Part shown: piece after piece, positions 32,220 through 50,386 of the stretch
Numbering within the stretch: position 1 is the first letter of the stretch
How the letters are laid out: each line of letters starts with the position of its first letter
Assembly: GCF_964204645.1 (NCBI RefSeq)
Contig: NC_134031.1
Location: 6,758,001 to 6,822,000 of the forward strand
Length of the DNA stretch: 64,000 bases
DNA from: Tubulanus polymorphus
Taxonomy: Eukaryota > Animalia > Nemertea
Direction: 5' to 3'
Notes under the pieces: generated by a model
What the model was told of the DNA's origin: nothing
Seen by the model: the letters and a program-made list of their open reading frames with translations, nothing else
Database searches by the model: none
Translations under genes and position numbers: made by a program

Positions 32220-32622
32220 AGTAATAGGGGTTTAGTTGTTTCATACCAAAGGTCGAAAGGTCGAGCCCGAGAAATTTTCCAAAATGTTAAAATAACAACA
32301 ATTTCTACTTGAATTAGTCGCGTACACTCCTAATTCAAGTAGAAATTATTATTATTTTAACATTTGGAAAATTTATCAACCTCAACCTTTCAACCTTTGA
32401 TATGAAACAACTAAACCCCTATTACTCTTAAAATATTCATATATATATGAATAAAATATAAATCATTGAACTTCTAAAATCAATTTTAATAAAAAATATA
32501 GTATTAAAATGGAAGCAAATAAGTACTACTGCCCAACATGTAATATCGATATAGATAAATCCCAAAAAGCAAGACACAATAAAACTAAAACACATTTAGA
32601 AAATAAATTGAAACTAGAATAT
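32220..32622 (+). repeat. Left TIR (403 bp); first 207 nt form an internal hairpin; includes the first 38 codons of pPolB
   Basis: Reverse complement of 49984-50386; the only mismatch I noticed is at 32614. Confidence 0.95.
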
Positions 32623-35600
32623 GAAGATGATATATTAGAAAATAAATTAGAAGAATTAAAGGATGAAAAAGAAACATACAAATGTGATACATGTAATCAA
32701 TCATTCAGTGATAAAAGATATTATAAAGAACATTTAAAATCTATAAGTCATATTAGAAATAAGAATAATGATATTTTAGGTGAAGATTATTTTGATAATG
32801 ATAACGATAAGAAACAGAAGACAATTAAAAGAATAAAAAATAAATTAAACAATAAAAGACCATACATGGAAGATGTAAGAAATTATATTAATTCATTAGA
32901 TAATAAAAAAGATATAGAGATAACCGAAGCATTTAAAAGTGATATTGGTCCAGCAGCTATCGAGTTTAAATTTCATAAAGGTAAAACATTAGAAGAAAAT
33001 AAAAAACATTTAGAAAATATGAAAGAAATAATAAAAATAATTACAAACGTAGAATACCCAAAAATTAGTATATCAGTTAAAGTAAAGTTTATAAAATCTG
33101 AAGATAAACCAATATATAATATAAATTCTCATTCACAACATATTATATCTAAACAACATATAGATGATAAATTAGATAAATGTTATAATGAAATAAAAAC
33201 TAAAATAGAAGAGAAATATTTTGAAGGATCTGGTTTAATATTTGATGAGATAATATTTATAACTTTACATGTTTATAACACAAAATATAATAAGTTAACT
33301 AAATCAAAACCAATTGATGAAAATAATTTATCATATTATAAAGATGATAGTATAAATGGAACAAGTTATATTAAACTACCATTTAAAACTAATGGTGTAA
33401 TAAATATACAAAATGAAGATGATAAATGTTTTCTATGGGCTATAATAAGTTGTTTACATCCAACAGAAGATATTACACATAGTTTTAGATTAACTCATTA
33501 TAAACCATTTGAAAATAATTATAAGATAGATAAGTATCCTGTTAGAATTAAAAACATCCCAAAAATAGAAAGAGATAATAATATAAAGATAAATGTATTT
33601 GATTTAATCAAATTACCAAATACAAAAGGAAATAATATTAAACATTATACATTAGAACCTTTATACCTATCAAAAGATTATGATTCAAATGATGTTATAG
33701 ATATACTATATTATGAGAATCATTACATGTGGATTAAACAAATCGATTTATTTTTTAAATCAGAAAATGATTTTGATAATAAAATATATCTATGTAGAAA
33801 ATGTTTACATAAATTCAGAACTGAAGGTGCATTATTAAATCATAAACAACTATGTGATAATCATGATTATTGTAAATTAGTTTTACCAAATGAAAAAGAT
33901 AAAATATTAGAATTCAAAAAATATGATTACAAAAATAAAGTACCATTTGTAATATATGGAGATTTTGAATCATTAAATAAAGAATTAACAGATAAAGATA
34001 GAAAAGATATATATTATAAAAGAAAGAAATTAAATTCTAATGAAAATGATTATTCAGATGAACCACCAATAACAAATACTATTAAAAAGATTCATCAATC
34101 AGCTGCAGCTTTCGGGTTATATATTCAATCTGATTATCCAGAACTAATTGAAAGTGAATATTATGATTATAGAAATGAAAATGTTATAAATCATTTTTGT
34201 GACTTATTAATTGAATATGAAATAAGATTTAGTAAATTATTGAATACAAATATAGAAATTATAATGACAGAAGAAGATAAAGAAGGATTTGAGTTTGCAG
34301 ATAAATGTTATTATTGTAATCAAGTATTCTATTCATCTGATAAAAAAGTAAGAGACCATGATCATTTGAATGGAAAGTTTAGAGGCGCTGCGCATGAGAA
34401 TTGTAACTTACAAGCTAAGAAAATTAACTTTGTACCAGTTATATTTCATAATCTATCAGGATATGATGCACATTTATTTATCAAACAGTTATGTCATAAA
34501 ATAGAAGAAATCAATAATGAAATAGAAATATTAAATTCAAATAGATCAAAAGATAAAATACCAACTTATAAATTTAGAATGTTAGCTAAAACATCTGAGA
34601 ATTATATATCTTTCCAATTTGGATGCTTAAGATTTATAGATTCATATAGATTTTTAAATAGTTCATTAGATAACTTATCAAAATCATTAGTTGATGATGA
34701 ATTAAAGATATTAAAAGAATATTACCCAAATAATGATGATTTTCAATTAATGAGATATAAAGGCGCAATTCCATATTCATTTTATAAATCACATAATGAT
34801 TTCAATATAACTGAATTATTGAAAGAACAATTCTATGATGAATTAAAAAATGAATATGTTAAAGATGAAGTCTATAATAGAACATTAAATATTTGGAATC
34901 ATTTCAAAATAGAAAATCATGGGCAATTAGTAGATTTATATTTAAAATCAGATGTATTATTATTAACCGATATATTCGAAAGGTTTAGAGATGTAAACCT
35001 AAAATATTTTAACATTGATCCTTGTCATTGTTATTCATCACCAGGTTTAACATGGGATTGTGGATTAAAATTTACAGATATAAAAATGGATTTGTTAACA
35101 AATATAGATCAATTACTATTATTTGAAAAATCTATAAGAGGAGGTGTTTCAGGTGTATTGGGTGATAGATATTTCAATGTAAATGATAATCCTGGATATA
35201 AATTATTATACATAGATGCAAATAATCTTTATGGTTGGGCAATGATGGAACCACAACCTTATGGGATGTTTGAAATAACTGAAGTTTTACAAATTGATAA
35301 ATTTGATTGGAAGAAAAGAATTCTAGATATTGCAGATGATTCAGATACTGGTTACTTCTTTGTTGTAGACTTGGAATATCCTGAACATATTAAATTTAAA
35401 TCTAGAAATCTAGCATACTGCCCAGAACATAAAACTGTAACTCATGAAGAATTATCAAATTATCAAAAAAGAATTAAACCCGATAATCATATTCATACTG
35501 AAAAGTTAATGGTAACTCAAGAAGATAAATATAATTATGTAGTGCATTATAGAATGTTGAAGTTTTATTTGAGACAAGGAATGATATTAAAAAAAGTACA

Positions 35601-36540
35601 TAGATATATTTCATTCAGTCAATCTAAATGGTTAGAAAAATATATAGATTTTAATACTACACAGAGAACTGAAGCTAAAACTGATTTCGAGAAAGATTTC
35701 TTCAAACTAATGAATAATGCATTCTATGGTAAGACTTGTGAAAACATAAGAAATAGAAATGATATTGAGTTAGTTAGTAATGGTAAAAGGATAAGGCATT
35801 TACAATCATATCCTAAGTTTATAGGTAACAGAATATTTGATGAAAATTTAGCAGCAGTTAAAATGAGGAGAACTTCTATGAAGTTCAATAAACCTATTTA
35901 TGTTGGTGCATCGGTTTTAGAATTATCAAAGTTATTAATGTATAAATTTTACTATAACATATTACAACCTCATTTTGGAGAAAAACACATAGAAATTCTA
36001 TACTTTGATACCGACAGTTACATATTAAAGATAAAAACTGATAACATAACAGATGATTTAAAAACATTAAAACACCATTTTGATTTTAGTAACTATCCTA
36101 AAGATCATGAATTGTTTAGCAATGATAATAAAAAAGTTCCTGGGAAGTTTAAGGATGAATTAGGTGGTGAAGAAATGATAGAGTTCATCGGTATTAGATC
36201 TAAAATGTATTCATATAAAACTAAAACTCATGAAGCTAAAAAGTTAAAAGGAATTACCAAAAGCGTTGTTGAAAAGAATATTCATTTTAAAGATTACATC
36301 AATTGTATATTTAATGAAGAAGTTAGAAAACATAAGATGAAATGTTTAAGATCTGAAGATCATGAAATGTATATTGAAGAGATAGAGAAGATAAGTTTGA
36401 ATCCATTTGATGATAAAAGATATATTTTAGATGATGGAATCCACACAGTCGCCTATGGCTGCAATTTAGATGAATATATAAAATTCAAAAGAGAAGAAAC
36501 AAAAGAAAATGAGATTATGAAAAGGATTCTAACGTGTTAA
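32509..36540 (+). CDS. polB: Protein-primed family B DNA polymerase with N-terminal zinc fingers and an endonuclease VII-like insert
   Basis: YGDFES, FHNLSGYDAH (exonuclease), DHDHLNGKFRGAAHENCN, YIDANNLYG, KLMNNAFYGK, YFDTDS. Confidence 0.96.
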   Translation: MEANKYYCPTCNIDIDKSQKARHNKTKTHLENKLKLEYEDDILENKLEELKDEKETYKCDTCNQSFSDKRYYKEHLKSISHIRNKNNDILGEDYFDNDNDKKQKTIKRIKNKLNNKRPYMEDVRNYINSLDNKKDIEITEAFKSDIGPAAIEFKFHKGKTLEENKKHLENMKEIIKIITNVEYPKISISVKVKFIKSEDKPIYNINSHSQHIISKQHIDDKLDKCYNEIKTKIEEKYFEGSGLIFDEIIFITLHVYNTKYNKLTKSKPIDENNLSYYKDDSINGTSYIKLPFKTNGVINIQNEDDKCFLWAIISCLHPTEDITHSFRLTHYKPFENNYKIDKYPVRIKNIPKIERDNNIKINVFDLIKLPNTKGNNIKHYTLEPLYLSKDYDSNDVIDILYYENHYMWIKQIDLFFKSENDFDNKIYLCRKCLHKFRTEGALLNHKQLCDNHDYCKLVLPNEKDKILEFKKYDYKNKVPFVIYGDFESLNKELTDKDRKDIYYKRKKLNSNENDYSDEPPITNTIKKIHQSAAAFGLYIQSDYPELIESEYYDYRNENVINHFCDLLIEYEIRFSKLLNTNIEIIMTEEDKEGFEFADKCYYCNQVFYSSDKKVRDHDHLNGKFRGAAHENCNLQAKKINFVPVIFHNLSGYDAHLFIKQLCHKIEEINNEIEILNSNRSKDKIPTYKFRMLAKTSENYISFQFGCLRFIDSYRFLNSSLDNLSKSLVDDELKILKEYYPNNDDFQLMRYKGAIPYSFYKSHNDFNITELLKEQFYDELKNEYVKDEVYNRTLNIWNHFKIENHGQLVDLYLKSDVLLLTDIFERFRDVNLKYFNIDPCHCYSSPGLTWDCGLKFTDIKMDLLTNIDQLLLFEKSIRGGVSGVLGDRYFNVNDNPGYKLLYIDANNLYGWAMMEPQPYGMFEITEVLQIDKFDWKKRILDIADDSDTGYFFVVDLEYPEHIKFKSRNLAYCPEHKTVTHEELSNYQKRIKPDNHIHTEKLMVTQEDKYNYVVHYRMLKFYLRQGMILKKVHRYISFSQSKWLEKYIDFNTTQRTEAKTDFEKDFFKLMNNAFYGKTCENIRNRNDIELVSNGKRIRHLQSYPKFIGNRIFDENLAAVKMRRTSMKFNKPIYVGASVLELSKLLMYKFYYNILQPHFGEKHIEILYFDTDSYILKIKTDNITDDLKTLKHHFDFSNYPKDHELFSNDNKKVPGKFKDELGGEEMIEFIGIRSKMYSYKTKTHEAKKLKGITKSVVEKNIHFKDYINCIFNEEVRKHKMKCLRSEDHEMYIEEIEKISLNPFDDKRYILDDGIHTVAYGCNLDEYIKFKREETKENEIMKRILTC

Positions 36541-36568
36541 TCAATTTCAATAAAAATTTGTATAATAA

Positions 36569-36910
36569 ATGGAGAGTAAACAAGTACACAGTGAATTCTT
36601 AGATAGAATTAAAGATACTTCAAGCGTCAAATCTGTAGATTATAAATTTAAAAAACTAACTGAGTTAACAATTCACAAGAAATATTTAATTACTAACATT
36701 GAAACAATTACTAATAAATATGGAGATAAATTAGTTATACACTTAGAATATGAAGGATTAAAAGGAAATACATATAAATTCAGAACATATTTACCTGATA
36801 GATTTCATAGATTATCAAGTGAAGATTTAGAAGAATTATGTTCTGGAGATTTCTATTTCATATATAAAGGTAAGAATGAAAAAGGGCACCACGATATTGA
36901 TTTTGAATGA
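36569..36910 (+). CDS. Small hypothetical protein, possibly an OB-fold ssDNA-binding protein
   Basis: Intact ORF directly after polB; beta-rich pattern (KYGDKLVIHL, TYLPDRF). Function inferred. Confidence 0.6.
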   Translation: MESKQVHSEFLDRIKDTSSVKSVDYKFKKLTELTIHKKYLITNIETITNKYGDKLVIHLEYEGLKGNTYKFRTYLPDRFHRLSSEDLEELCSGDFYFIYKGKNEKGHHDIDFE

Positions 36911-36925
36911 AAATATGTAAAATAA

Positions 36926-37681
36926 ATGGTGGAATTAAAAGAATACAGAATATTTGTTGATTCTAGAAAACTTACAAATTATAAATCACATAATTTACTA
37001 GTTCAATTAGATAGAGAATTTAAGAATTGTGTTGATTTAAAATTAGTTAATATAAGTTTATGTAATTCTTTTTACAATGTATCGGATAAAACTTTTGAAC
37101 ATAGAGGGTTTATGATTTATATGAGAAATAAAGATAAATGGTTTCATATATTTTTAAAACCAGGATTATATAATTTAGAATCATTAGCGCAGGAAATTAA
37201 TAGAAGAGCTCGGTTGAAAATCGGGGGCACTTCTGTATTTGAAATTAAGTTTAATAAAATTGATAGTACTAATAAAATAAGAATAAAGATATCTAATGAA
37301 CAACATAAATTTATGGTAAACAAACCACTGGCTAAAATGTTAGGAATTAAACCGCTTACAGTTACTGGAAACGCAGAAGGCAGCTCAAATATAATACCTT
37401 TTACACACTTTTATATTTATTGCAATTTAATCGAGCCTACAAAAACTTTCGAAGCAACTAAAGAAACAATTTGTAGTTCTAGTATACTAAATATTTTACC
37501 GCTAAAAAATGTTAAACAATTTGGAACTCAAATAAATTATAATTTAACAGAATGTGATTTTAAACCATGCATTCCTAAATTTAATAATTTTAAATTAGAA
37601 ATAAGAAATCATAATGGATACTTAATTGATTTAAATAACTTTCCTGTAATTTATGAATTAGTTATAAGATGTAAAGAGTAA
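36926..37681 (+). CDS. Minor capsid (penton) protein, single jelly roll
   Basis: Polinton penton-like motifs IFVDS, PGLYNLESLAQEIN, YIYCNLIE, ILNILP, LEIRNHNGYLIDLNN. Confidence 0.75.
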   Translation: MVELKEYRIFVDSRKLTNYKSHNLLVQLDREFKNCVDLKLVNISLCNSFYNVSDKTFEHRGFMIYMRNKDKWFHIFLKPGLYNLESLAQEINRRARLKIGGTSVFEIKFNKIDSTNKIRIKISNEQHKFMVNKPLAKMLGIKPLTVTGNAEGSSNIIPFTHFYIYCNLIEPTKTFEATKETICSSSILNILPLKNVKQFGTQINYNLTECDFKPCIPKFNNFKLEIRNHNGYLIDLNNFPVIYELVIRCKE

Positions 37682-37697
37682 TTTTTTTGATATATAA

Positions 37698-38057
37698 ATG
37701 AATATAACTGTTGGACCGAGTATATGTTTTGGATTTGATTTTAAACGTGAGAAAGAAATGAAATTTAACATTAATGATGTAATAACACATATCAAAAATA
37801 TTACATTTTCTAATGAAACAACATTTGAGTATGAAACAACAATAGATAAAGAAACTTTAAATGTAGAAAAGATTACTAATTTAATTAGAGAATCTTTAAG
37901 ATTTTATGAATTAGATGAAGATTTTATCATCGATGATATTAAAAAAATAATAATTGAAATATATGATAATCATAAAACTAGTAATGAAATAAATGTTGAA
38001 ATAATCATCACTAAGTTAACTAAATATTTTGATGATAGTAATTTTTTTGATAAATAA
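37698..38057 (+). CDS. Hypothetical acidic protein
   Basis: Intact ORF in the element's gene array with a T7-N6-TAAATG start. Confidence 0.65.
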   Translation: MNITVGPSICFGFDFKREKEMKFNINDVITHIKNITFSNETTFEYETTIDKETLNVEKITNLIRESLRFYELDEDFIIDDIKKIIIEIYDNHKTSNEINVEIIITKLTKYFDDSNFFDK

Positions 38058-38279
38058 ATGAGTGATAATAAGTGGATAATAACTGGATTATATAATGGCG
38101 CATTACTATCAGTTGGAACTGTTGGTTATTCAATGGTATTAAAAAAAGTATTCAAAATGGGAAGTGTTAATGTTGATAGATTTGATATAAATGATATTCT
38201 AAAATTAACATTAGCAGTTACTTTATCTAATTTAACTATTGATTATTTGGAAAAACAAAAATATATTCCTCCTATATAA
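38058..38279 (+). CDS. Small predicted membrane protein
   Basis: Two hydrophobic segments; T7-N6-TAAATG start. Confidence 0.7.
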   Translation: MSDNKWIITGLYNGALLSVGTVGYSMVLKKVFKMGSVNVDRFDINDILKLTLAVTLSNLTIDYLEKQKYIPPI

Positions 38280-38303
38280 ATACATAATTTTTTTGCTAAA
38301 TAA

Positions 38304-38729
38304 ATGGCTTCTGCAATTATAACTATTATAGGATCGGCAATTGTTAACGCTTTAGCATTTACTGGTGGTGGTTATATATTTAAACATATTGATAAAAATA
38401 GTTCATTAGGAGAACAAAGAAGACATAACTTAGCGTTAGAGAAATACAATAAAGCTGCAGAAGAATATAGAGAAAAGAGGCAAAACTATATGGATTACAT
38501 CAATAAAGAATTATATGATCAGAAGATTTCACATAGAGATTTTCAATCAGTTGATGATGCAATGAGTTTATATAACGCAGTAACAAATAAAGAAAAATTA
38601 CATCTATACAAACCTAAATTATCAGATTATTATACCCCAAGTAAAGAACAACAGAAATATGAAATAATTTGGATTTTAGGTGGAACTGTTATTGTTATAT
38701 TTGTTGCTTATAAGTTTACTAATGAGTAA
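38304..38729 (+). CDS. Predicted membrane protein (N-terminal hydrophobic/Gly segment, helical core, C-terminal TM)
   Basis: MASAIITIIGSAIVNALAFTGGG ... IIWILGGTVIVIFVAY. Confidence 0.75.
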   Translation: MASAIITIIGSAIVNALAFTGGGYIFKHIDKNSSLGEQRRHNLALEKYNKAAEEYREKRQNYMDYINKELYDQKISHRDFQSVDDAMSLYNAVTNKEKLHLYKPKLSDYYTPSKEQQKYEIIWILGGTVIVIFVAYKFTNE

Positions 38730-38747: not shown

Positions 38748-39182
38748 ATGGAAGATAAAGTTGATAGTATTGATATTATTCCTCATGATATAAATAAAAC
38801 TAAATTAAAAACATATTTAGAAAAACAAATATTAGAATTTGAAAGTGACTTAAAAGTTAAAAAGAAAAAATATCTAAAAAGTAAAATTATATATTATTTG
38901 ATTATAAGTGGTTCGGTTACAATTAGTTCTGTAATAACATTTTTAGCAATATTCAGCCCATTAACACCTTTAGCTATATCAATTGGTGTGTTAGGATTAA
39001 GTTCAAGTGTTTTAACTGGTATAAGTTCAAAATTAAATATAAAAAGTAATAAAGTAAAAATTAAAACTAATATAAAAGAAATTAATAAATTAAAGAATAC
39101 ACTAGATTATATAATAAGTTTAAATGGTCATATAACAGTTGAAGAACAAGATAAATTATTAAAAGAATTAATAAATTATTAA
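38748..39182 (+). CDS. Two-TM protein flanked by coiled coils
   Basis: IIYYLIISGSVTISSVITFLAIF and LAISIGVLGLSSSVLTGI. Confidence 0.75.
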   Translation: MEDKVDSIDIIPHDINKTKLKTYLEKQILEFESDLKVKKKKYLKSKIIYYLIISGSVTISSVITFLAIFSPLTPLAISIGVLGLSSSVLTGISSKLNIKSNKVKIKTNIKEINKLKNTLDYIISLNGHITVEEQDKLLKELINY

Positions 39183-39199: not shown

Positions 39200-40588
39200 A
39201 TGGTAGATAGTTTTCCAAAAGCTTTCCGATATAATAAATCAATTAAATATAATATTCCAGCAATAGATTTTAATAAAGATATTACATATAGAAATGAAGT
39301 TTTAGATTCATTAATTGATTTATATATTTATGTTACTGAAACTAATAATTTTAATGCAAAGATGGAAAATATATTTCATGTATATTTAATTAATTTTAAA
39401 AAATTGAAAGATGAAAAACAATGGTTATTAAAATCTAATATGAAGTATTGGCAGAATCAATTAAATTTTGCTGTTTATTGTGCAACAACAGGTTGTGGAA
39501 TTAGTTGGAATGATCATTTGAATAATTCTAAATATAAACTAATTCAAAGTTTATTTAGATTTCATACATACTTTCAAATCAGAATAATATTAAATGAATT
39601 AGAGTGCGCTTTACCAGGATCTAGGTATTTTAAAGAATTAGATAATAATATTAATTTATCAAAGTTTTATAAAATTTGTAATGAATTTAATATAGATATA
39701 AATAATTCTGATTTTAGAACAAAAATTGGAACAATAAGATCACTTCCTTGCCCTAAAAAGATTGCAGAATATTGCGCACTTCCCATACCATCTAATAGCT
39801 TTTATAATATCTATAATAATAAATTAGGTTATGGTAAAATTGAAACAAAGGATTTAGAAACATTAAATTTCAATAAATTACCGAAATTTTATGATAATTT
39901 AAAACAAGAAAACAATAATGGTTGGGTTTATTTTATTTTAGAAAATAGTGAAGGTTTTACTAAATCAGGTATACAAAGAATAAATCAATCTATTAGAACT
40001 TATTTGATATGTATTTTAGGTGCGCAAGTTGAAACAAGATCACCAATAATTGGAAATTTGAATACATCATTTGATACACAAAAACAATTTAAAGTTTTAT
40101 TTGAAGATTCAATTCATAATGATAAAAATAGATCGATTCCAGAAAACATTATAAGATATCAAAATTATTTAGATAAATCTCATGTAAGACTTAATTATTG
40201 TATAGGCCCTAATCTATTAATTATTTCTAATGATTTAGTATTGAAGATGGGAAATATAATTGGTTATAATAATCTAATTAAAACTGCAACAATAAATAAT
40301 TCATTTGGATTAAATGATATAAATAAAAAGATTATTACTGCTCCAAAATTAATGGAGGGTGAAAAAAATAAAAAACACATTCAATCAACAGAAACTAAAA
40401 CTAATAATATTAAATTGGTTAATGATTCTAAAATAAAAGATTACAATACATCAGAAAATATTAAAACTGATAAAATTCAACATGATATAATTAAACTAAA
40501 TGATGATAATAAATCCCATGAAAATACTAAATTAGCTATAACTTGTATAGGAATTGTAATCGGAGGAATATTATATTTTAAATTTTAA
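39200..40588 (+). CDS. Uncharacterised 462-aa protein with a C-terminal TM anchor
   Basis: Long intact ORF; terminal LAITCIGIVIGGILYF. Confidence 0.8.
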   Translation: MVDSFPKAFRYNKSIKYNIPAIDFNKDITYRNEVLDSLIDLYIYVTETNNFNAKMENIFHVYLINFKKLKDEKQWLLKSNMKYWQNQLNFAVYCATTGCGISWNDHLNNSKYKLIQSLFRFHTYFQIRIILNELECALPGSRYFKELDNNINLSKFYKICNEFNIDINNSDFRTKIGTIRSLPCPKKIAEYCALPIPSNSFYNIYNNKLGYGKIETKDLETLNFNKLPKFYDNLKQENNNGWVYFILENSEGFTKSGIQRINQSIRTYLICILGAQVETRSPIIGNLNTSFDTQKQFKVLFEDSIHNDKNRSIPENIIRYQNYLDKSHVRLNYCIGPNLLIISNDLVLKMGNIIGYNNLIKTATINNSFGLNDINKKIITAPKLMEGEKNKKHIQSTETKTNNIKLVNDSKIKDYNTSENIKTDKIQHDIIKLNDDNKSHENTKLAITCIGIVIGGILYFKF

Positions 40589-40604: not shown

Positions 40605-42074
40605 ATGGAAGTAGAAGGTGGAGAAGATTATGAAATGGGAGAAATGGGAAATAATAATGAAGGATATATTGATGATGAACCACAACCAGATTTTAATGAA
40701 ACTAATATTGATAATGATGATGAATCAGCATATAATTCTAATTTAGCAGATAGTGGTTCTAAAGGTCAATCAACAGATGAATTTGATAGAAGAACTAGAT
40801 CGAGAATAAATCCTGAAAATGAAAATCCAGATTTAGTAAAACAAAATTTAGAATATAATGAATATATTTATAATTTCAAACCTATATTTGAAAAATCTGG
40901 ATATAATATCAATGCTAGAGGCGCCAGACTTTTAGTACAAGAATTAAAATCTTTAGATGGTGAATATTATTATCATTTGAAAGATGATTATTATATTGAT
41001 ATCTCTTATAAAAAACAAAACAAAATATTAGCAGAATCAACTTTGCTTAAGTCTGACTCATTACTATCTAGAATTAAAAGAATAAGAAATAGTAATGAAA
41101 TAGAAGATGTAACACAAGAAGAAATTATTAAAAATGAAAGAGTATTTAAACAAAGAATTAATGAATTATTTGAAACAATCGATAATAATTTAGAAACAGA
41201 AACAACTTCTGAACAGAATATAACTTCCAAAACTAGTAAACTTAAATCAAATAAAGTTCCAATTGAAAAACTTTTACCGAATGGGTTACTTGATGCAACA
41301 GATCAAGAATTAGAAGATTTAGATATATTTTCTGATAAAGCAATTAGAGAAATTATTAGTATAAGACTTGCATCTGATAAAATTTCGCATGATAAAAGTA
41401 TAAGAGATTTTAAAATTAGAACTTTAGAAAAAGAATTAACTGATAAAAATAAAGAAATAGAACAACTAAAATTAGATAGAGATAATAAAGTTATTGAAGA
41501 AATTGAATTTAAAAAAAGAAATGCATATTTAGAAAAAGAAATTGATGATTTAGAATATAACATAGAATTACAAAAAGAAGAAATTAAATTATTATTAAAA
41601 TCATATGATTATAATATTAATAGATTAAAAGTTATTTTTAAAGATTTGTTGATTAAACCAAATTCTGAAATATCATTAAAAGACAGAATAAAGTTATTAT
41701 TTAAATTAGAAGGAATAACAATTCTTTCAATTCTAACAGCTGTAACTATGTTATTTACAACAATTGGTTTAGCAATATCAAATGCTTTGAAATCTACTCC
41801 TACTCCAAATAAACCAGATAAACCTCCAGGTAATAATTCTATACAAGATAAAGTAAAGGATGGTTTAAAGAAATTAGCAAAATATTTATGGGAACTATCA
41901 AAGAAATCTGCTGCAGCATTGCCAGGAGTTATTGCTTCAATTGTTGGTTTTATATTGAAATCTGCAGGAAACATTATTAACTTTGCTGCTGAACATATTA
42001 TTTTATTTTTAATTACAGTTGTAAGTGCTATTATTTTTGGTTTAGTAAATATGATATCAAAAAATATCAAGTAA
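40605..42074 (+). CDS. Acidic N-terminus, long coiled coil and multi-TM C-terminus (489 aa)
   Basis: Heptad-rich middle region; about three hydrophobic segments at the C-terminus. Confidence 0.8.
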   Translation: MEVEGGEDYEMGEMGNNNEGYIDDEPQPDFNETNIDNDDESAYNSNLADSGSKGQSTDEFDRRTRSRINPENENPDLVKQNLEYNEYIYNFKPIFEKSGYNINARGARLLVQELKSLDGEYYYHLKDDYYIDISYKKQNKILAESTLLKSDSLLSRIKRIRNSNEIEDVTQEEIIKNERVFKQRINELFETIDNNLETETTSEQNITSKTSKLKSNKVPIEKLLPNGLLDATDQELEDLDIFSDKAIREIISIRLASDKISHDKSIRDFKIRTLEKELTDKNKEIEQLKLDRDNKVIEEIEFKKRNAYLEKEIDDLEYNIELQKEEIKLLLKSYDYNINRLKVIFKDLLIKPNSEISLKDRIKLLFKLEGITILSILTAVTMLFTTIGLAISNALKSTPTPNKPDKPPGNNSIQDKVKDGLKKLAKYLWELSKKSAAALPGVIASIVGFILKSAGNIINFAAEHIILFLITVVSAIIFGLVNMISKNIK

Positions 42075-42115: not shown

Positions 42116-43363
42116 ATGAGTGGGAGTTATATAAGTCCTTCGAAGATTTCTAGAATATCTAATGCTATTAAAGCAGAAAGATCACATCATATAATTACTC
42201 ATAACCCTTCAAATATTAATCCCGATGAAACTTTATATGTTAGAATCCCTCGATTAACACAAAATACTTTTTATGTTCCAAATAGTATTTATTTATCAGC
42301 CGATATAAAAGTAATCGGTAATAATAATAATTATGTTGTCGATAATGTTGGAAGATATTTGATTAAAAAATTAATAATAAAGATTGGACCAGAAACAGTT
42401 TTCTCATTAGATGATTATAATTTATTTATGCATTATAAAGATTTATGGTTAACTAAAGAAAATAGAAATAATATGATATTTCAAGGAATTCAATCAGAAA
42501 ACCAAAATAAATTAAGATCAGAAGCTAATAGCGCAATATTAACTAATGATGTAGATAAATTGATAAAAAGTATATATGGAAGCAAATATAAAATTCCATT
42601 AGACTTTGAATTGATAAATAATAATGCACCTTTATATAAATACGCAATTCAAGAAGATATTATATTTGAGATAACATTTGCTCCTGTAAATGAAATCGTA
42701 ATATCTAGCGTTAATAAAGATATGAGTTATAAATTATCGAATATATGTTTAGAATATGATACAGTAACTGATGAAAATATTTCAAGTATAATTCAAACTC
42801 AATACAATCAAGGATTTTCATTATTATATGATTATATTGATAAATTTAAAACTGTAACTATTAATGCAAATGATGAAATAATTAATGAGAATATTAACTT
42901 CCCTAGAAGATCTATTAAAGGTATATTAATATTTTTTACCATTGGAACGTATACTAATGGCGCAATAAATGTTGATAATTATTATAATCCTGAAATAACA
43001 AAAGTAGAAATAACTATCGAAGGAATAGCAAATAAAATATTTTGTCAAGGAATGAGAATGATTGATCAATGGGTAGAAATTAAAAAACATTTTATGAATG
43101 AAAAAGTAAAATCATTTGAAAATTGTAACATTAATCAAATTGATTATTATACCGGTAATAAATATGCATTATGGTTAGATTTTAGAACAACTGAGGATAA
43201 TTCATTACATGGTTCTGGAAAAAAACTACAAAATACAAAAGATGGAATACAATTATTCATGACAAAGAAAAAGGGAATCAAAAATTTTAAAATGCATATT
43301 TATATTATATCTGACGCACAATTAAATATTGTAAATTCACAATTAGATAGTGTTATGTATTAA
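42116..43363 (+). CDS. Probable major capsid protein (double jelly roll)
   Basis: 415 aa, beta-strand-rich alternating pattern, size and context typical of Polinton MCPs; not confirmed by profile search. Confidence 0.75.
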   Translation: MSGSYISPSKISRISNAIKAERSHHIITHNPSNINPDETLYVRIPRLTQNTFYVPNSIYLSADIKVIGNNNNYVVDNVGRYLIKKLIIKIGPETVFSLDDYNLFMHYKDLWLTKENRNNMIFQGIQSENQNKLRSEANSAILTNDVDKLIKSIYGSKYKIPLDFELINNNAPLYKYAIQEDIIFEITFAPVNEIVISSVNKDMSYKLSNICLEYDTVTDENISSIIQTQYNQGFSLLYDYIDKFKTVTINANDEIINENINFPRRSIKGILIFFTIGTYTNGAINVDNYYNPEITKVEITIEGIANKIFCQGMRMIDQWVEIKKHFMNEKVKSFENCNINQIDYYTGNKYALWLDFRTTEDNSLHGSGKKLQNTKDGIQLFMTKKKGIKNFKMHIYIISDAQLNIVNSQLDSVMY

Positions 43364-43395: not shown

Positions 43396-44468
43396 ATGGA
43401 AGGTGGAATATATGAAATACAAACTCCAAGTGAAATGATATCAGATATATATTATATATTACCTTATGATGAATACAGTAAGTATTTTGGAGATTACTTT
43501 AATCAATTCAAATATAGAATAAGTAAAATAGATAAGAATATTGAAACAAAAATAGTGATAATATTGAACCTAAAATAGAAGATAATATTGAACCTAAAAT
43601 AGAAGATAAGAATGATATTGAATATAAAATAGAAGATAATATTGAATCTAAAATAGAAGATAATGTTATACCTTCTACATCGAATTATGATAAGATTGAA
43701 CCTGATATCAAAACCAAAAAGATAAATGAAAAATCAAATGTTCAACCAAAAGATAACATCAGATGTATGTATTGTGAAGAAGATTTTGATAATTATAATG
43801 ATTATTTATTACACATCAAAAAAGATGAACATATTTTACAATTAGTAAAAACATATGCCAATATATATAAAGATAAATGCAAAGAGGATCAGAATTATTG
43901 TGCCTTCTGTAATGAATGTATAACAAAGGCTAATTGGGCAAAACATTATAAATTAAAAACAAAAGGTGGAAATGATTCAGCCCATGCAATACAAGTATTT
44001 AAATCTTGGTGTGAAAAATGTAAAGAATATGTAATATATGATAAACAATTGAATCATAAATACTCAATTAAACATATTGGTACAGATAATGTAATAGAAA
44101 ATCCAACAGTTATAAATCCAAAATTTAATAATAAGAATATATTAGATTATCGGTGGTATAGAAAAACATTTATAGATTATTTATTGAGTAATGATATAGT
44201 TACCATATTGAAAAAGTTAGATAACTTTAAACCAAATGTAACTTATGCAATGAACTTATTTGAACTTAAATATGATGATTTTAGAGAATTTTTAAATAAA
44301 CATTCATCTAAAACTGAAATCGAAAATTATATTCCAAAAATATTTTCAAGAAAAACATTCAATAAATATAAACTCGAGAATCATTTAGGACCTATACCAA
44401 TGAAAATGCAAAGGAATTTATGGTTAGAATACAATAAGCTTAAAGAAAAATATGAAAATGAAAATTAA
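43396..44468 (+). pseudogene. Zinc-finger protein with KIEDNIEP repeats, split by a 1-nt frameshift at ~43556
   Basis: One repeat unit reads aaaatagtgataat versus aaaatagaagataat elsewhere; the shifted frame is open through RCMYC...H...H into the 43767 ORF. Confidence 0.75.
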
Positions 44469-44855
44469 AAATATTATAGAATTCACTGTATATTGATGGA
44501 TGAATGGATGAGTTGGAAGAGTTGGATGAGTTGGATGAGTGGAAGAGTGGATGAGTATAATAATATATATATTTTACTTTTTAACACATAAATTGGAAGA
44601 ATAGTATGAGTATAAATATAATATTTATATTCTTTATTAAATTTAACACAATATATATATATTATTAAAATAATATTTAAATATAGTATAAAATTGATAA
44701 AATAACTTCAAATCAAACTCTTACTGTTTTAAAAATAAAAAACATATGTAAATTATATATTATTACACTCATCCATTCATCCACTCATCCAATTCATCCA
44801 ATTCATCCAATTCATCCACTCATCCATTAGTATACAGTGAATTCTATAATATTTT
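44468..44855. repeat. Long inverted repeat (~105-bp arms containing TGGATGAG/A units) between the convergent gene blocks
   Basis: aaaatattatagaattcactgtata at the left and tatacagtgaattctataatatttt at the right. Confidence 0.85.
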
Positions 44856-44866
44856 GAATTAGGATT

Positions 44867-45478
44867 TTATTTTATAAATTTATATTCATATGGAAATTGT
44901 AATCTCATAAGTAATTTGGAACCTTTATTATTCTTTAATTTATTCATATATTCATCATGTAATTCAGGAGGTATAATTTGATTTTCTTCCAATGATTGTT
45001 GCATAGATTTTTTATCTTTGTTATAAAATAAAACTAGAAATCTTATATTCTCTCTAAAATCTTTCACAATTGAATTATATTTCTGATTTAAAACCCATGT
45101 TGTTATCCCAAAATGTCTACCAGAGAAAGCTAAATAACATAACTCACTTTCTCTAATTTTAGAATCATGTAAATTTGCGCAATCATCAATAATAAATAAT
45201 GTATTTGATCCTTTATAAGTATCAATTGCTATTTTAATACAATTATCTAAATTTTCTTTTACTGTTTTAGAATCTAATATAATAAACTTTTTTATCTTAA
45301 CTATATCTCTATTATATGTTTTATTCATTTCATAAGTTGGGCAGAATAATATTATATTATCGAAATGATTCTGATAAATAGTTTCTAATAAATCTAATAT
45401 GAAGTGTGTTTTACCACAATTTGTAACTCCAGTTATTAACATATTATGTGGTTCAAATATAAACAAATCTTTATTCAT
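44867..45478 (-). CDS. A32/FtsK-like DNA packaging ATPase
   Basis: Walker A GVTNCGKT, Walker B FIIDD, arginine finger GRH, downstream NQ sensor. Confidence 0.92.
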   Translation of the reverse strand: MNKDLFIFEPHNMLITGVTNCGKTHFILDLLETIYQNHFDNIILFCPTYEMNKTYNRDIVKIKKFIILDSKTVKENLDNCIKIAIDTYKGSNTLFIIDDCANLHDSKIRESELCYLAFSGRHFGITTWVLNQKYNSIVKDFRENIRFLVLFYNKDKKSMQQSLEENQIIPPELHDEYMNKLKNNKGSKLLMRLQFPYEYKFIK

Positions 45479-46559
45479 TTATTCTTTTAATTTTACTAGA
45501 TAAAATCCATTCATTAAATTTATCATCATATCCTTTATATTTCACCAAAGAATACTTTTTTCCTTTAAGAGTTTTTGTTTTCAATACTTTTTCTATTTTG
45601 TATTCTATTTCATCTGGATTTGGTACAAGTGATAATTCTTGTTCATAGAAATAACCTAATATTTCTTCATCTTTTAGATCTTCTAATTTATAAACAAATG
45701 GTTTAGTTAATATTATCTTTTTAATTTTAAATATTTCTTCAGTAAAATTAGGGGTATAACCTTTATAAAATGTTTTTCGATATTTAGAAATTCTAACATG
45801 TTGTCCTATTTTAAATTTAGGTTCTCCAAAATCATGTGTAACAAATGCTCCATATAAATTATTCCAAACTATTTCTGAATTTTCTTCTTTTCTAGCTTGT
45901 ATAGGTTTCATATTTATAGAACTATGTTTAGAATTATTATAACCTTTAACTAAATCATCTAACACATCGATATATTTATATGTTTCATTAGCGGTGAAAT
46001 ATTTCCACATTCTAGTTTTCAATGTTTTATTAAATCTTTCTATAACAGATGCTTTTTTATCTGAATGTGTTGAAAAATATTCTACATCGTTATCAGATAA
46101 TAGTTTTTTGAAATGTTTGTTATAAAATTCTTTACCTTCATCAAATTGTATTTTATCTGGAATAGCTTCTTTAAATATTAATTTGAAAGAATTTGTAACT
46201 TCTATACCAGTTTTATTTTTAATCGGGATACTCCATGCGTATCTACTGAATATATCTATAACATTTAGTATCCAAAAATATCCTTTGTTGTATTCTTCTA
46301 AGTTTTTCATGTCAATTAAATCTGCTTGCCATTGTTGATCAATATATGAAACCATTACTTTTCTTGTTAAATATTTTTTATCCATCTTTTTATGAATTTG
46401 ATATGTGGGTTGATTTTGTAACCATGATTTTAATTCACTATATTTTATTTTTTCTTTATCAGATTTAATTTTATCCCATAATTCTGAAACACTTGAATAT
46501 GAAACTTCACTTTCTGGGTTATAATATAAATCTCTTAAATATTGTTCTTTTTTCATCAT
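45471..46559 (-). CDS. Retroviral-like DDE integrase with C-terminal chromodomain
   Basis: WQADLIDM, IDIFSRYAW, FDEGKEF, ERFNKTLK; chromodomain YKIEKVL...VKYKGYDDKFNEW. Confidence 0.95.
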   Translation of the reverse strand: MMKKEQYLRDLYYNPESEVSYSSVSELWDKIKSDKEKIKYSELKSWLQNQPTYQIHKKMDKKYLTRKVMVSYIDQQWQADLIDMKNLEEYNKGYFWILNVIDIFSRYAWSIPIKNKTGIEVTNSFKLIFKEAIPDKIQFDEGKEFYNKHFKKLLSDNDVEYFSTHSDKKASVIERFNKTLKTRMWKYFTANETYKYIDVLDDLVKGYNNSKHSSINMKPIQARKEENSEIVWNNLYGAFVTHDFGEPKFKIGQHVRISKYRKTFYKGYTPNFTEEIFKIKKIILTKPFVYKLEDLKDEEILGYFYEQELSLVPNPDEIEYKIEKVLKTKTLKGKKYSLVKYKGYDDKFNEWILSSKIKRINE

Positions 46560-46562
46560 ATT

Positions 46563-46946
46563 TTAATCCATTAATAATATTTTAGATTTATTTTCATTTG
46601 ACTTATTTTCTGGTATGATAGGTTTATTGTCATTGGAATCATCTTTATCGTAAGATTTGAATTTTGATTTATATATTACACCGGATAATATAATAACTGT
46701 TACTAATCCAATTGTAATATATAATTTATAATTACTTCCAACATTATAAGAATTAGATGGATTATTATTTGAATCAATACCACCGTGTGGGTGCTGTACG
46801 GCACCATCAGATAAAGTCTGTGATTCATTTATATCAGTTAATTTCTTTTTCTTAGCTTTTTTTAATTCTGAAGATCTTTTACCTAATTCTCTTGCCCATT
46901 TAATTTGTTTATCGGATCTAGCCTTTTTCTTAACTCCATCACTCAT
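46563..46946 (-). CDS. Basic N-terminal, single-TM protein
   Basis: Lys/Arg-rich start; LYITIGLVTVIILSGVIY; TAAATG start overlapping the upstream ORF. Confidence 0.7.
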   Translation of the reverse strand: MSDGVKKKARSDKQIKWARELGKRSSELKKAKKKKLTDINESQTLSDGAVQHPHGGIDSNNNPSNSYNVGSNYKLYITIGLVTVIILSGVIYKSKFKSYDKDDSNDNKPIIPENKSNENKSKILLMD

Positions 46947-47547
46947 TTATTTTAGTTAATTTTTGTTCTGATTCATTTTCTGTTTCGACGTTTGGTTGTA
47001 GTACAGCGTCATCTGTTTCGTTCTTACCTGATTTATATTCCATAGGTTTGATGTTCGAAAATGTAATGACACCAGTAGAAATCAATGTCATAACCGATCC
47101 TAATTGAAATGAAGCATAACCGACCCATTTTTGTAATTCAGTCATAACTAAATAGTCATTTTTCAAATCATTATATAATTTATTTTCATCATCAATTGGT
47201 ATTAACTGGTTACATAATTTTGAATAACATTTGACAATACCATCTGAAACAGAATCATTTATTCTAGCTAATCGAGCTTCTTCATAAATCTTAAAATATT
47301 TTATTACTTTATCGGGTTTCATAGCATCTAATTCTTGAAAAGTAATGATTCTATTTAAAAACTCATTAGTTTTTCCACCGGCAATCAATAGTTCTATATG
47401 GTGCTTACAATATAAATTGTATTCATAATCTATATTGTTATTAACTTGAATAGAATTAGAAACAACTGTATCTTTATTATCACTAATACCTAAATCATCT
47501 AATGTATTTTCAATATCAATACTATTCTTATTAGATTTCTTTGACAT
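46939..47547 (-). CDS. Hypothetical protein with a C-proximal hydrophobic segment
   Basis: Intact 202-aa ORF; T-run then TAAATG start. Confidence 0.7.
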   Translation of the reverse strand: MSKKSNKNSIDIENTLDDLGISDNKDTVVSNSIQVNNNIDYEYNLYCKHHIELLIAGGKTNEFLNRIITFQELDAMKPDKVIKYFKIYEEARLARINDSVSDGIVKCYSKLCNQLIPIDDENKLYNDLKNDYLVMTELQKWVGYASFQLGSVMTLISTGVITFSNIKPMEYKSGKNETDDAVLQPNVETENESEQKLTKINE

Positions 47548-47967
47548 TTATATTAGAGTAAAAAAGCAAAAAAAATATTATAAGTATTCTTCAAATGATA
47601 CTAGTATCTCTTTAGGTTAATACTAAATTGATTAGGTTAGTTAAAGTTAAAGAATTTCTATTCAAATCTATTCAAAATCTATTCAATCTAATGTCAATTA
47701 GAATTACCAAAAGAAAATATTAAAAATATAACAGAATTCACTAGCTAGTTGAAGTTATTGTTTTTTTATTATATTTTATTTAAATTAGGATTTAGATTAT
47801 CTCACTACTATTGTCTATCTATTAGGAGCAGTAATTATAACTGTCCAGATAAGTCATTTCGGATCCTCGATATCAAATCCTCAACTGAAAATAAATTCAA
47901 AGAAACGACTGGTGGAATTACTATTTCATAAACACATATATTTATTATGTAAATTTTAGCGATCGAT

Positions 47968-48220
47968 AATAGAACAATGGAGAACAATAGAAATGCGGTC
48001 CAATCGGACCGGTTATTGCGCAATACACGGTTATATTTTTATTCTAACAACGATCAATAATAGAACAATGGAGAACAATAGAAATGCGGTCCAATCGGAC
48101 CGGTTATTGCGCAATACTTAGTTAACAGTAAACAATCAATACAGAACAATGGAGAACAATAGAAATGCGGTCCAATCGGACCGGTTATTGCGCAATACTT
48201 AGTTAACAGTAAACAATACA
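47968..48220. repeat. Three direct repeats of a ~57-bp core containing two palindromes
   Basis: agaacaatggagaacaatagaaatgcGGTCCaatcGGACCggtTATTGCGCAATAc at 47971, 48062 and 48143. Confidence 0.9.
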
Positions 48221-48285
48221 ATATTAAAACAGATATATACAACATTTTTTGATATCTATATTACAAAGACCTTCAGTGTTATAAT

Positions 48286-48753
48286 TTATAATTTTGTCCA
48301 GAATTCTTTAATTACTGGATTGTTTCCAATCATTTCTTCAATTTCTGGTAAATGTCTTACTACTTCACTAAATGCTAATCCTAATATTTTGAATTTTTCA
48401 TATTTTATTAATCTACCTACTCTTCTCAGTTTTCTTTCAAAACCGGCACTGATATCTCCACTCATTTTCTTAGTTTTCGATTATTTGAGTCCCAACAGCA
48501 ATTTAAGTCGCGTTGCTGGTAATTTTGGTAATTGTAGTTCGCGCGGTAATTGTTTATTATGTATTACATCACTCAGAGTTTTCACCATTTCTTGATGATA
48601 GTCCAAATGTTCTTATAATTTTTGTGAAGTTTGTTCGTCAATTACGAGAGTTTTATCCTCCATTTCTATTGATTCCTGAGTTTCACTATCTATCGTTTCT
48701 GGTTCCTCATACGTTGGTTGGCTTAGAATTTCTGGTCGATCTTTGTGTTCCAT
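48286..48753 (-). pseudogene. ~155-codon element gene with two in-frame TAA stops
   Basis: Starts TAAAATG GAA CAC; one frame runs to TAA at 48286 with internal TAAs near 48613 and 48481. Confidence 0.6.
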
Positions 48754-49101
48754 TTTAATCTAAAAGATATCGTGAAATTGAATTACTATACTTAAATATG
48801 TTTAAAGGTTTCCCTACTTCATAATAACTACAAAAAACGGTACTTACATTTAGATTTAGAACTGTAAACTGTGTTTTGAGAGAGAATATCCAATACGTAC
48901 TATGTATGTGAATGTTGATTTCTAACTGCCGACGTGGCGCACGTTCGACCAAACTAATTACTTCTGCACAGATGTTCTTTATGATGAAGTTAATTAATTC
49001 TTTAGAATTGAAAACAAGATATATTTGGCAACATATGTTTTAGTAGTAAGCAAAAGCTATGTATTATATACATACAAAGCTCAAATAGAATTGCCAGCTT
49101 T

Positions 49102-49767
49102 CTAACCACTGATCAAAACCTCAGAATGCGGTTGATTCTGTGAAATACTATTCCATAATTCAACAAATGTCTTTGCTTTATCCAGTTGATCTAAATATAA
49201 CTGTATATCTAGTTTATTAGATTTAATTATGTTTTCTTTCTTTTCAAGAGGCCTTAAATTTCCCCAACCCCAAATAAGTTTTTTATTGTATTCATCATTC
49301 ATGTTAAATTTAGAAATCGGCAACACATGATCAATATGAAAGTATTCACCGTAATTATCTATATTCATTTTATCATCGAATTGATATATAATCCATGATT
49401 TGAGAAATTCACCTGAACAACCCAATAAATTAGATAATGTTTCTGAATGTGTTTCTTTGTTGAATAATTGTGTTAATCTAGATCTTAAACACTGTTTCAA
49501 TCTAAAATTAAGATCTGTTTGATATCTTTCTCTCATATATTCTGCCATATAATAATTATAATGTTCTATATTATCTTCTCGGTATTGTTTGGTGTATAGT
49601 TTAAAACAAGTTTTACAGCAATATTGAAAACCATCTTTGCTAATCTTACGCTTACTAAATTCTGTTAATGATTTATCTAATTCACATTTAGAACACTTCT
49701 TGTAGTATATGTTTATAACGCCAGTGTTATTTGTAATATTTATAGTTTGTGGTTGTTCTGGTTCCAT
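49102..49767 (-). CDS. HNH endonuclease with N-terminal Cys4 zinc-binding motif (type common in large DNA viruses and phages)
   Basis: CSKC...CKTC; HIDHVLP...WGNLRPLEKKENIIK. Confidence 0.85.
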   Translation of the reverse strand: MEPEQPQTINITNNTGVINIYYKKCSKCELDKSLTEFSKRKISKDGFQYCCKTCFKLYTKQYREDNIEHYNYYMAEYMRERYQTDLNFRLKQCLRSRLTQLFNKETHSETLSNLLGCSGEFLKSWIIYQFDDKMNIDNYGEYFHIDHVLPISKFNMNDEYNKKLIWGWGNLRPLEKKENIIKSNKLDIQLYLDQLDKAKTFVELWNSISQNQPHSEVLISG

Positions 49768-49845
49768 TTATTATATGTATTTTTTACTAAATTGGTTAAT
49801 AATTTTAGAATCCTCTTCCATTTCTTCGACCAACATCATCCTTTT

Positions 49846-50097
49846 TCATTCTTCGTTGCTTTTGATAAGTTGTTTCGATTCCTTGATATCAAATTCCTCA
49901 ACGTATTGTTCATTATTTGGATCATTATTCCATAATTCAATAAATTTCTTTGCTTTTGTTAAATGTTCTGAATATAACTGTAAATATTCTAATTTCAATT
50001 TATTTTCTAAATGTGTTTTAGTTTTATTGTGTCTTGCTTTTTGGGATTTATCTATATCGATATTACATGTTGGGCAGTAGTACTTATTTGCTTCCAT
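49846..50097 (-). CDS. Chimeric ORF: pPolB N-terminal zinc finger (from the TIR) fused to an HNH-like C-terminal tail
   Basis: First 38 aa identical to pPolB; LQLYSEHLTKAKKFIELWN resembles IQLYLDQLDKAKTFVELWN of the neighbouring HNH. Confidence 0.7.
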   Translation of the reverse strand: MEANKYYCPTCNIDIDKSQKARHNKTKTHLENKLKLEYLQLYSEHLTKAKKFIELWNNDPNNEQYVEEFDIKESKQLIKSNEE

Positions 50098-50386
50098 TTT
50101 AATACTATATTTTTTATTAAAATTGATTTTAGAAGTTCAATGATTTATATTTTATTCATATATATATGAATATTTTAAGAGTAATAGGGGTTTAGTTGTT
50201 TCATATCAAAGGTTGAAAGGTTGAGGTTGATAAATTTTCCAAATGTTAAAATAATAATAATTTCTACTTGAATTAGGAGTGTACGCGACTAATTCAAGTA
50301 GAAATTGTTGTTATTTTAACATTTTGGAAAATTTCTCGGGCTCGACCTTTCGACCTTTGGTATGAAACAACTAAACCCCTATTACT
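49984..50386 (-). repeat. Right TIR (403 bp)
   Basis: Inverted copy of 32220-32622. Confidence 0.95.

Follow-up and report, generated by a model that had tools for sequence, protein, structure and literature searches.

A 64,000-nucleotide window of the genome of the nemertean Tubulanus polymorphus (NCBI RefSeq assembly GCF_964204645.1, contig NC_134031.1, positions 6,758,001 to 6,822,000) contains an integrated Polinton in which almost every gene begins at the motif TAAATG. The motif and the bases upstream from it constitute a promoter code that is real, conserved and specific, and its most likely meaning is a helper of the pox type. Judging from sequence, the element is probably a satellite of a co-infecting poxvirus or a close pox-like relative, whose cytoplasmic RNA polymerase would transcribe it. 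A preliminary description of the window had proposed that the promoters are poxvirus-style and that transcription proceeds in two waves. The first proposal is upheld by conservation of the signal in relatives, by a fine match to post-replicative poxvirus promoters and by avoidance of a poxvirus termination signal, whereas support for the second is weak.

Eighteen gene starts are present in the element, of which 14 are TAAATG, three are TAAAATG and one, that of the integrase, is TAAAATATG. The TAAAATG starts at 32509 and 50097 represent a single promoter copied in the terminal repeats, and therefore 17 starts are independent (14 TAAATG, two TAAAATG and the integrase start). Neither the ATGs at 43767 and 48465, each within a broken gene and without the motif, nor open reading frames (ORFs) overlapping longer genes on the opposite strand were counted. 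TAA precedes 39 of the 699 other ATGs of the element (5.6%), and the probability of finding it at 14 or more of 17 starts is 1.6e-15. At 45478 and 46946, TAAATG is embedded in the coding sequence of the upstream gene, and the T-run that serves the start at 38058 is embedded likewise.

The bases upstream from the motif are equally specific. On both strands of the entire window, T7-N6-TAAATG occurs six times and T7-N6/7-TAAAT seven times, always at gene starts, and the latter pattern is absent from 46 kb of host DNA. The T7 runs cover bases 7-13 upstream. A second pattern, A5-N8-10-TAAA(A)TG, has six matches in the whole window, every one at a start, and AATAA is located at -18 to -14 ahead of the DNA polymerase gene (polB), 36569 and 43396. 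TAAAA variants are confined to starts outside the T-run class. These observations agree with the preliminary description, which had listed the start positions and their motifs, a fixed spacer between T-run and TAAATG (N6, with N7 at 39200), an A-run upstream from polB, 36569, 43396 and the HNH gene, and motifs that overlap upstream coding sequence. Early poxvirus, early mimivirus, TATA and Cafeteria roenbergensis virus (CroV) TCTA motifs are at background level ahead of the 17 starts, and the early poxvirus consensus is found at none of them. The baculovirus motif DTAAG is present in 8 of the 17 100-nt windows (versus 0.25), but its distance is not fixed and it was not adopted.

Related elements allow the motif to be followed across lineages. 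Relatives of the capsid protein number 917. When metagenome contigs were scanned with a profile, 171 loci emerged, of which the best 80 were retained, and three from genome contigs brought the set to 83. Seven near-duplicates and five short or unplaced loci were left out, so that 71 of the 83 were scored. In a quick capsid tree of 77 rows, in which L054 and L069 may be affected by long branches, the window falls in a 16-row clade (SH-aLRT 99) nested in a 23-row clade (100). Three loci (L057, L064 and L068) are absent from the tree and were grouped by similarity.

Of 61 starts in the clade of the window, 50 have strict TAA|ATG, as do 19 of 21 in a second group of ∼34% GC (L034, L072, L077 and L069). 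Together, these two groups carry it at 69 of 82 starts over a range of 20-44% GC, and members at 40-44% GC retain TAAATG. By contrast, the motif is found at 0/23 starts in sister lineages, at 1/56 in AT-rich distant relatives whose GC content equals that of the second group (34%), and at 1/84 and 3/131 in two groups rich in GC. At -3, the two motif-bearing groups have T in 85-95% of starts, versus A in 43-80% in the four other groups. None of three host gene starts checked has the motif. One distant relative outside the TAAATG lineages in the tree, L082, has TAAAATG at 3/3 starts.

Promoter detail was compared in a set comprising the window and 18 loci, with 102 starts, of which 94 have TAAATG or TAAA variants. 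T occupies the tenth base upstream at 67 of these 94 starts, compared with 29% of 157 non-start TAAATG sites, and is more frequent in virion genes (39/47) than in other genes (28/47; p = 0.022). In divergent gene pairs of the relatives, the ATGs lie 15-30 nt apart and TAAATG is present on each gene. Compact two-way promoters with a shared A/T tract occur at L009 365-402, L010 2012-2049, L011 783-822, L034 6442-6479 and L072 2471-2495. A T7-N6-TAAATG promoter also precedes a deoxynucleoside kinase gene (PF01712, E 1.7e-31) at L003 10340-10981, where no same-strand gene lies immediately upstream.

These features closely resemble those of vaccinia promoters. Vaccinia late promoters have a T core, a spacer of 5-7 bp and TAAAT(G/A) over the start codon (PMC5294985), with a conserved T ten bases upstream (PMC11980589). 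Similarly, TAAAT(G) lies over the start codon at 14/17 starts of the element, and seven of its promoters have a T core at a gap of 6 or 7 and T at the tenth base. Intermediate promoters lack that T, are A-rich further upstream and only sometimes include the TG (PMC11980589); they are described as an AT-rich core from -26 to -13, a 12-bp spacer and a TAAA initiator. TAAA is recognized by the vaccinia polymerase itself, and no consensus exists for the intermediate core (PMC12917281). In the A-run class of the element, an A-rich core lies ∼12 bp from TAAA, and the AATAA register at polB, 36569 and 43396 is like that of the vaccinia G8R promoter printed in PMC12917281, as compared by eye. For polB, 36569, 43396 and the HNH gene, the position fits an intermediate-type promoter, but that core has no consensus and the class shifts among orthologues. 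Slippage at TAAA yields poly(A) leaders both in vaccinia and in the yeast pGKL elements (PMC6211774). Other large viruses differ, since the late initiator of African swine fever virus (ASFV) is TATA with AT leaders added (10.1101/847343) and pacmanvirus uses TATATA (PMC11788076). Unlike vaccinia, the element has a post-replicative-type promoter on its DNA polymerase gene and the early consensus at 0/17 starts.

A further signal is found within genes. The sequence TTTTTNT (U5NU) is a poxvirus termination signal, which in vaccinia is active on early genes. Its expected frequency was derived from synonymous shuffles of coding DNA, and the reversed motif served as the control. On the coding strand of the element, TTTTTNT occurs three times versus 13.2 expected (control, 11 vs 14.5), and in the closest relatives nine times versus 24.7 (control, 23 vs 31.8). 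AT-rich relatives lacking TAAATG have 28 versus 34.4 expected. T-runs may be promoter cores and terminators at once. A depletion specific to promoter class (in the element, 1 vs 8.5 in non-T genes and 2 vs 3.0 in T genes) was not repeated in relatives and was dropped.

If the element is a satellite of a poxvirus, then a pox-type cytoplasmic polymerase supplied in trans would read its genes instead of the host nuclear polymerase. This enzyme would initiate within the AAA and slip, and the resulting 5′ poly(A) leader would replace a 5′ untranslated region (UTR) and take the poor T at -3 out of the message. Late factors would act on the T-tract promoters of the capsid and membrane genes, and intermediate factors on the A-tract promoters of the polymerase, the likely single-stranded DNA-binding protein (SSB) and accessory genes. 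T-runs located after stop codons may terminate the upstream transcript. Naked DNA can use the intermediate and late machinery of poxviruses but not the early machinery, which would explain why the polymerase gene has a post-replicative promoter. Between helper infections, the integrase would let the element persist in the host genome or germline, as for mavirus. The two proposed waves correspond to a split between T-run and A-run promoters that is clean in the element and largely preserved among the nearest relatives, but clade-wide the difference given above is weak and some orthologues switch. From the sequence data, the chance of a true two-step cascade falls slightly short of even. An antiviral role, in which the helper would be harmed and the host would gain, is doubtful.

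Several observations weigh against a poxvirus helper. The lack of a consensus in the vaccinia intermediate core makes the A-run class weakly diagnostic, and promoter class shifts among orthologues: an A-run precedes the capsid gene in L007 and L012, and T-runs precede HNH genes in relatives. Virion genes of the element avoid U5NU too, and those of the closest relatives do so (5 vs 15.0) as replication genes do, which departs from vaccinia. The second TAAATG group does not avoid TTTTTNT (7 vs 8.5), and in one test of members with 30-44% GC the reversed control was equally low (5 vs 13.7), such that the avoidance there is unspecific. Long A-runs are also depleted, and therefore a general avoidance of homopolymers accounts for part of the deficit. 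The hexamer AATAAA is not depleted in the 14.8 kb of element coding DNA (72 vs 71.7 expected); counts of AATAAA and of splice donors did not separate the groups, and because most motif-less relatives are also undepleted, the AATAAA test cannot tell nucleus from cytoplasm. Several element ORFs that lack a known fold could hide a divergent transcription factor.

The search for a helper also gave negative results. When viral contigs were scanned with the capsid, the 462-amino-acid (aa) protein, the polymerase and the integrase, no element relative was found. Matches to the T-class motif in viral contigs were mostly due to chance; among the 120 stretches listed, none has the motif at all neighboring starts, and no helper candidate emerged. 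[quoted passage not shown] Basal egovirus-like polymerases from marine sediments indicate that undescribed poxvirus relatives exist (10.1101/2024.03.23.586382), with no tie to the element. A cytoplasmic polymerase would, in addition, have to reach a nuclear copy of the element.

These difficulties must be set against those of other explanations. Host RNA polymerase II might transcribe the genes in the nucleus from an initiator of the element's own, perhaps with an element-encoded factor, in which case the likeness to poxviruses would be convergence on an AT-rich initiator. The element does integrate in a nuclear genome, expression of coral polintoviruses is seen in ordinary transcriptomes (PMC11131425), and no function has been assigned to ORFs of 462, 202, 119 and about 300 aa. 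We consider this scenario unlikely, however, since no ORF matches TBP, TFIIB or a similar protein, a TATA box precedes 2/17 starts (the background level), and neither the T at the tenth base nor the avoidance of TTTTTNT is predicted. Moreover, T at -3 and an in-frame stop directly before the ATG are a poor context for a scanned message, and the abundance of AATAAA, subject to the limit given above, recalls the AT-rich cytoplasmic genes of yeast that become fragmented upon nuclear expression (PMC6211774). A slippage initiator might also be used in the cytoplasm by a polymerase from a non-viral linear element of the pGKL type, whose genes have a TAAAN initiator, poly(A) leaders and RNA stem-loop ends (PMC6211774); a long inverted repeat past the ATPase gene in the element and four close relatives is in keeping with this. 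Yet ATNTGA, expected 20-40 nt upstream, precedes 0/17 starts (background 0.08), and TAAAT fused to ATG with a T tract centered ten bases upstream is the vaccinia late form. If the polymerase came from a distant large virus instead, the TATA initiator and AT leaders of ASFV (10.1101/847343) do not fit. Either source is very unlikely.

The motif could, alternatively, act in translation, through stop-start coupling or re-initiation on polycistronic messages. The genes are tightly packed, and at 38058 the TAA is the stop codon of the upstream gene, but this is true for just one of the 14 TAAATG starts. The T-run keeps a constant gap to the ATG (6 or 7 nt), whereas its distance to the upstream stop ranges from -15 to +26. 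Since both genes of divergent pairs carry the motif with no gene upstream, coupling is removed as an explanation, little space is left for 5′ UTRs, and a translation signal is scarcely plausible. The simplest proposal, that the motif arose by chance from AT-rich drift and host Kozak context in an element that is 76% AT, has almost nothing left to recommend it. Besides the P-value, the relatives at 34% GC carry the motif at 19/21 or 1/56 starts depending on lineage, members at 40-44% GC keep it, and the three host starts lack it. This contrast between lineages at equal AT content refutes an origin in composition and, together with the difference at base -3, removes Kozak context. AT content plus host Kozak context, which the preliminary description had named as an explanation that would refute its proposal, fails to account for the motif (5.6% background; 69/82 vs 1/56).

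The gene content and boundaries of the element are given in Table 1. Its extent, 32220-50386 (18,167 bp), is wider than the 32480-50130 previously assigned, and its 24% GC (76% AT) compares with 30-54% per kb in the surrounding host DNA. The ORF at 50097, described as an independent gene, is a chimeric stub. A "capsid/membrane block" had also been proposed; the capsid fold holds for 42116 only and hydrophobic segments are present at 38304, 38748, 39200 and 40605, but neither is found in 37698 or 38058.

Table 1. Coordinates of the Polinton and its features within the window
Feature	Coordinates	Strand	Remarks
Left target-site duplication, TGTAGC	32214..32219	.	Identical hexamer at 50387-50392
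Left terminal inverted repeat, 403 nt, with polB promoter and first codons	32220..32622	+	Pairs with 49984-50386, one mismatch
Imperfect palindrome, 207 nt, at extreme element end, also at right end	32220..32426	+	DNA fold -73 kcal/mol, z -18, 0/200 shuffles
Protein-primed-type family B DNA polymerase (polB), 1343 aa, with zinc fingers at the N terminus and an endonuclease VII-like domain inside; A-run TAAAATG	32509..36540	+	Catalytic motifs present; PF03175 and PF02945 in relatives
113-aa protein, possible SSB; A-run TAAATG	36569..36910	+	Lead only: phi29 SSB clusters, score 0.84
251-aa protein, likely minor capsid protein; TAAATG, weak A-run	36926..37681	+	Kept in relatives
119-aa protein; T7-N6-TAAATG	37698..38057	+	No assigned function
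73-aa conserved small protein; T7-N6-TAAATG, T-run within upstream gene	38058..38279	+	18 homologues in loci
141-aa conserved protein, two hydrophobic segments; T7-N6-TAAATG	38304..38729	+	
144-aa protein, two hydrophobic segments; T9-N6-TAAATG	38748..39182	+	
462-aa family-wide protein, helical core, C-terminal hydrophobic tail; T7-N7-TAAATG	39200..40588	+	
489-aa coiled-coil protein, several C-terminal hydrophobic segments; T7-N6-TAAATG	40605..42074	+	
Major capsid protein, double jelly-roll; T7-N6-TAAATG	42116..43363	+	Model pLDDT 88.7; Foldseek E 5e-17 to PBCV-1 and iridovirus capsids
Variable zinc-finger-like gene, broken; A-run TAAATG	43396..44468	+	Two pieces, different frames
Long inverted repeat between two convergent gene blocks, directly past ATPase stop	44455..44868	.	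115-nt arms, z -17
A32-like packaging ATPase; TAAATG within integrase reading frame	44867..45478	-	Pox_A32 PF04665, E 1.6e-12
Retroviral-type integrase with chromodomain; start TAAAATATG	45471..46559	-	rve PF00665 E 6.8e-9 (above cut-off), Chromo E 7.6e-5; acidic triad motifs
127-aa protein, one hydrophobic segment; TAAATG within upstream gene	46563..46946	-	
202-aa family-wide protein; T-rich TAAATG	46939..47547	-	
Broken gene, TAAAATG start then in-frame stops	48286..48753	-	Three stop-free pieces, one frame; no Pfam match
HNH/endonuclease VII-like gene; A-run TAAATG	49102..49767	-	phrog_1035 E 3e-19
83-aa chimeric stub: polB start from repeat fused to HNH-like tail	49846..50097	-	Direct repeat D19 at 72%
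Right terminal inverted repeat	49984..50386	-	Pairs with left repeat

The polymerase has 2891 relatives at E ≤ 1e-50, some with PF03175. In the Foldseek comparison, the mavirus capsid ranked beneath those of Paramecium bursaria chlorella virus 1 (PBCV-1) and iridoviruses as a match to the element capsid. To judge from its motifs, 36926-37681 encodes a candidate minor capsid protein; its PDB search was blank and no named Pfam family matched. The predicted model of the 462-aa protein matched no known fold (best Z 3.8), PDB sequence searches with six further element queries were blank or gave chance matches, and the search with the HNH protein matched seven proteins, among which a donor virus was not identified. 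No RNA polymerase subunit, TBP, TFIIB, transcription factor or late factor was detected in the element ORFs by Pfam, PHROGs and PDB searches or by ORF size, so the earlier statement that the element encodes no RNA polymerase is sound at this sensitivity. A protease of the adenain/Ulp1 family was not detected in the element ORFs or in 34 scanned proteins of relatives, although a very divergent one could escape. Intact relatives of the variable gene at 43396 follow the capsid gene in L001, L002 and L005; in the window, short tandem repeats (43533-43700) lie where this gene changes frame, and an assembly error is possible.

The element ends in AGT...ACT. Its 403-nt terminal repeats with one mismatch and the TGTAGC target duplication indicate that the insertion is recent. 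In the 207-nt imperfect hairpins (32220-32426 and 50180-50386), the inner end is the element terminus reversed, and the orientation is equal at both ends. Mismatched hairpin ends are a feature of poxviruses and ASFV, of which these structures are reminiscent; long terminal hairpins are odd for a protein-primed replicon. An inverted repeat past the ATPase stop is present in all five of the closest elements that reach that far, namely the window, L001 (3720-3837), L002 (3092-3177), L003 (9173-9340) and L005 (3163-3275), with unrelated sequences. This central repeat is possibly a terminator or a read-through barrier. A 75-81-nt repeat that includes a palindrome is present three times in the non-coding right arm (47971-48217). 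In the host flanks, intronless rhodopsin-type G-protein-coupled receptor genes lie on both sides of the insertion (31081-31968 and 53391-54341), a long interspersed nuclear element with endonuclease and reverse transcriptase occupies 25920-29646, and a long uninterrupted ORF at 7158-9059 presumably resembles Ro60/TROVE. The closest capsid and polymerase relatives are found only on short contigs (<17 kb), and those of ∼40% identity are often on long host contigs; integration of the window's lineage may be rare, or its assembly poor. Among the capsid relatives, one is labeled as a Bartonella protein from a draft genome and is probably host carry-over.

With polB, an integrase of the rve type and inverted repeats at its ends, which define Polintons in PMC11296320, the element is a Polinton. 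It is not an adintovirus (Starrett et al.), as the protease was not detected, and it is not filed as a virophage. Terminal repeats, target duplication, protein-primed DNA polymerase, rve integrase, A32-like ATPase and double jelly-roll capsid are shared with Polintons/Mavericks and adintoviruses (PMC11161782, PMC8502044). Relative to these groups, the element differs in its undetected Ulp1/adenain protease, its family-wide set of membrane proteins and its long terminal hairpins. Polinton-like viruses (AHEV_PLV1, AHEV_PLV2, CBEV_PLV1 and Ca_PLV1) occur in entomopoxvirus occlusion bodies (Barth et al. 2024, PMC11296320). They too are small capsid-encoding elements with terminal repeats, and have been proposed as poxvirus hyperparasites, but they are ∼12 kb in size, encode a cysteine protease and lack an rve integrase. 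The element, by comparison, is 18 kb and has an rve integrase and several membrane proteins; a protease was not detected in it, and promoter grammar is all that links it to poxviruses.

Mavirus and the endogenous mavirus-like elements of Cafeteria also have an rve integrase, no RNA polymerase and one short motif before their genes (PMC8547959). Types of these elements differ in motif, which has been taken to reflect different helpers, and mavirus shares its promoter with CroV (PMC8547959) and is silent until CroV infection (PMC8547959; 10.1101/2025.10.09.676808). Mavirus differs in its protist host, the TCTA motif of CroV, a virophage-lineage capsid and reactivation demonstrated by experiment (PMC8547959), whereas the element has an animal host and TAAATG and is known here from sequence alone. 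The yeast pGKL1/2 elements are likewise linear and AT-rich, with terminal repeats, a protein-primed polymerase, compact overlapping genes and a TAAAN initiator, but they have their own polymerase, need ATNTGA upstream and lack capsid and integrase (PMC6211774). Poxvirus-associated Polinton-like viruses of insects are known, and no paper was found that gives this TAAATG promoter grammar, or TAAAT promoters, for a Polinton in the literature searched, which excluded subscription journals and bioRxiv supplements. Within it, "polinton", "TAAAT" and "vaccinia" occur together only in PMC6211774. In the available text of PMC11296320, "promoter" and "transcription" appear 0 times in the main text and "promoter" 0 times in the supplement, and "promoter" is absent from that of PMC8502044 and PMC11131425.

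Sister lineages of the window's clade may use a different signal. In L054, L015, L057 and L053, TATA is located ≤22 nt from the ATG at 15/23 starts, compared with 5% in the control, an arrangement like the ASFV late initiator with its short 5′ UTR. The TATA motif hints at helper switching. L054 also has a weak match to Pox_VLTF3 at 5082-5576 (E 3.6e-5; 24 bits, cut-off 25), which has no homologue in the window or other loci. A tentative extension, which we hold to be possible though rather improbable, is that this protease-less, membrane-protein-rich family of animal Polintons consists of satellites of cytoplasmic large DNA viruses that have switched helpers, with poxviruses serving the TAAATG lineages and asfarvirus-like viruses the TATA sisters.

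The mode of transcription of animal Polintons, which lack an RNA polymerase, and their possible need for a helper could be tested directly with a lineage-wide poxvirus promoter code, because it belongs to the best-studied viral transcription system. The code predicts pox-like viruses in invertebrates from which none is on record, and it suggests that the bases preceding start codons could reveal which helper a given Polinton is likely to have. If the proposed relationship is true, then these promoters would point to pox-like viruses that await discovery in invertebrates other than insects, and the integrated copies would provide animals with an antiviral reserve that can be induced. If the elements curb their helpers, then the virophage defense of protists would extend to animals.

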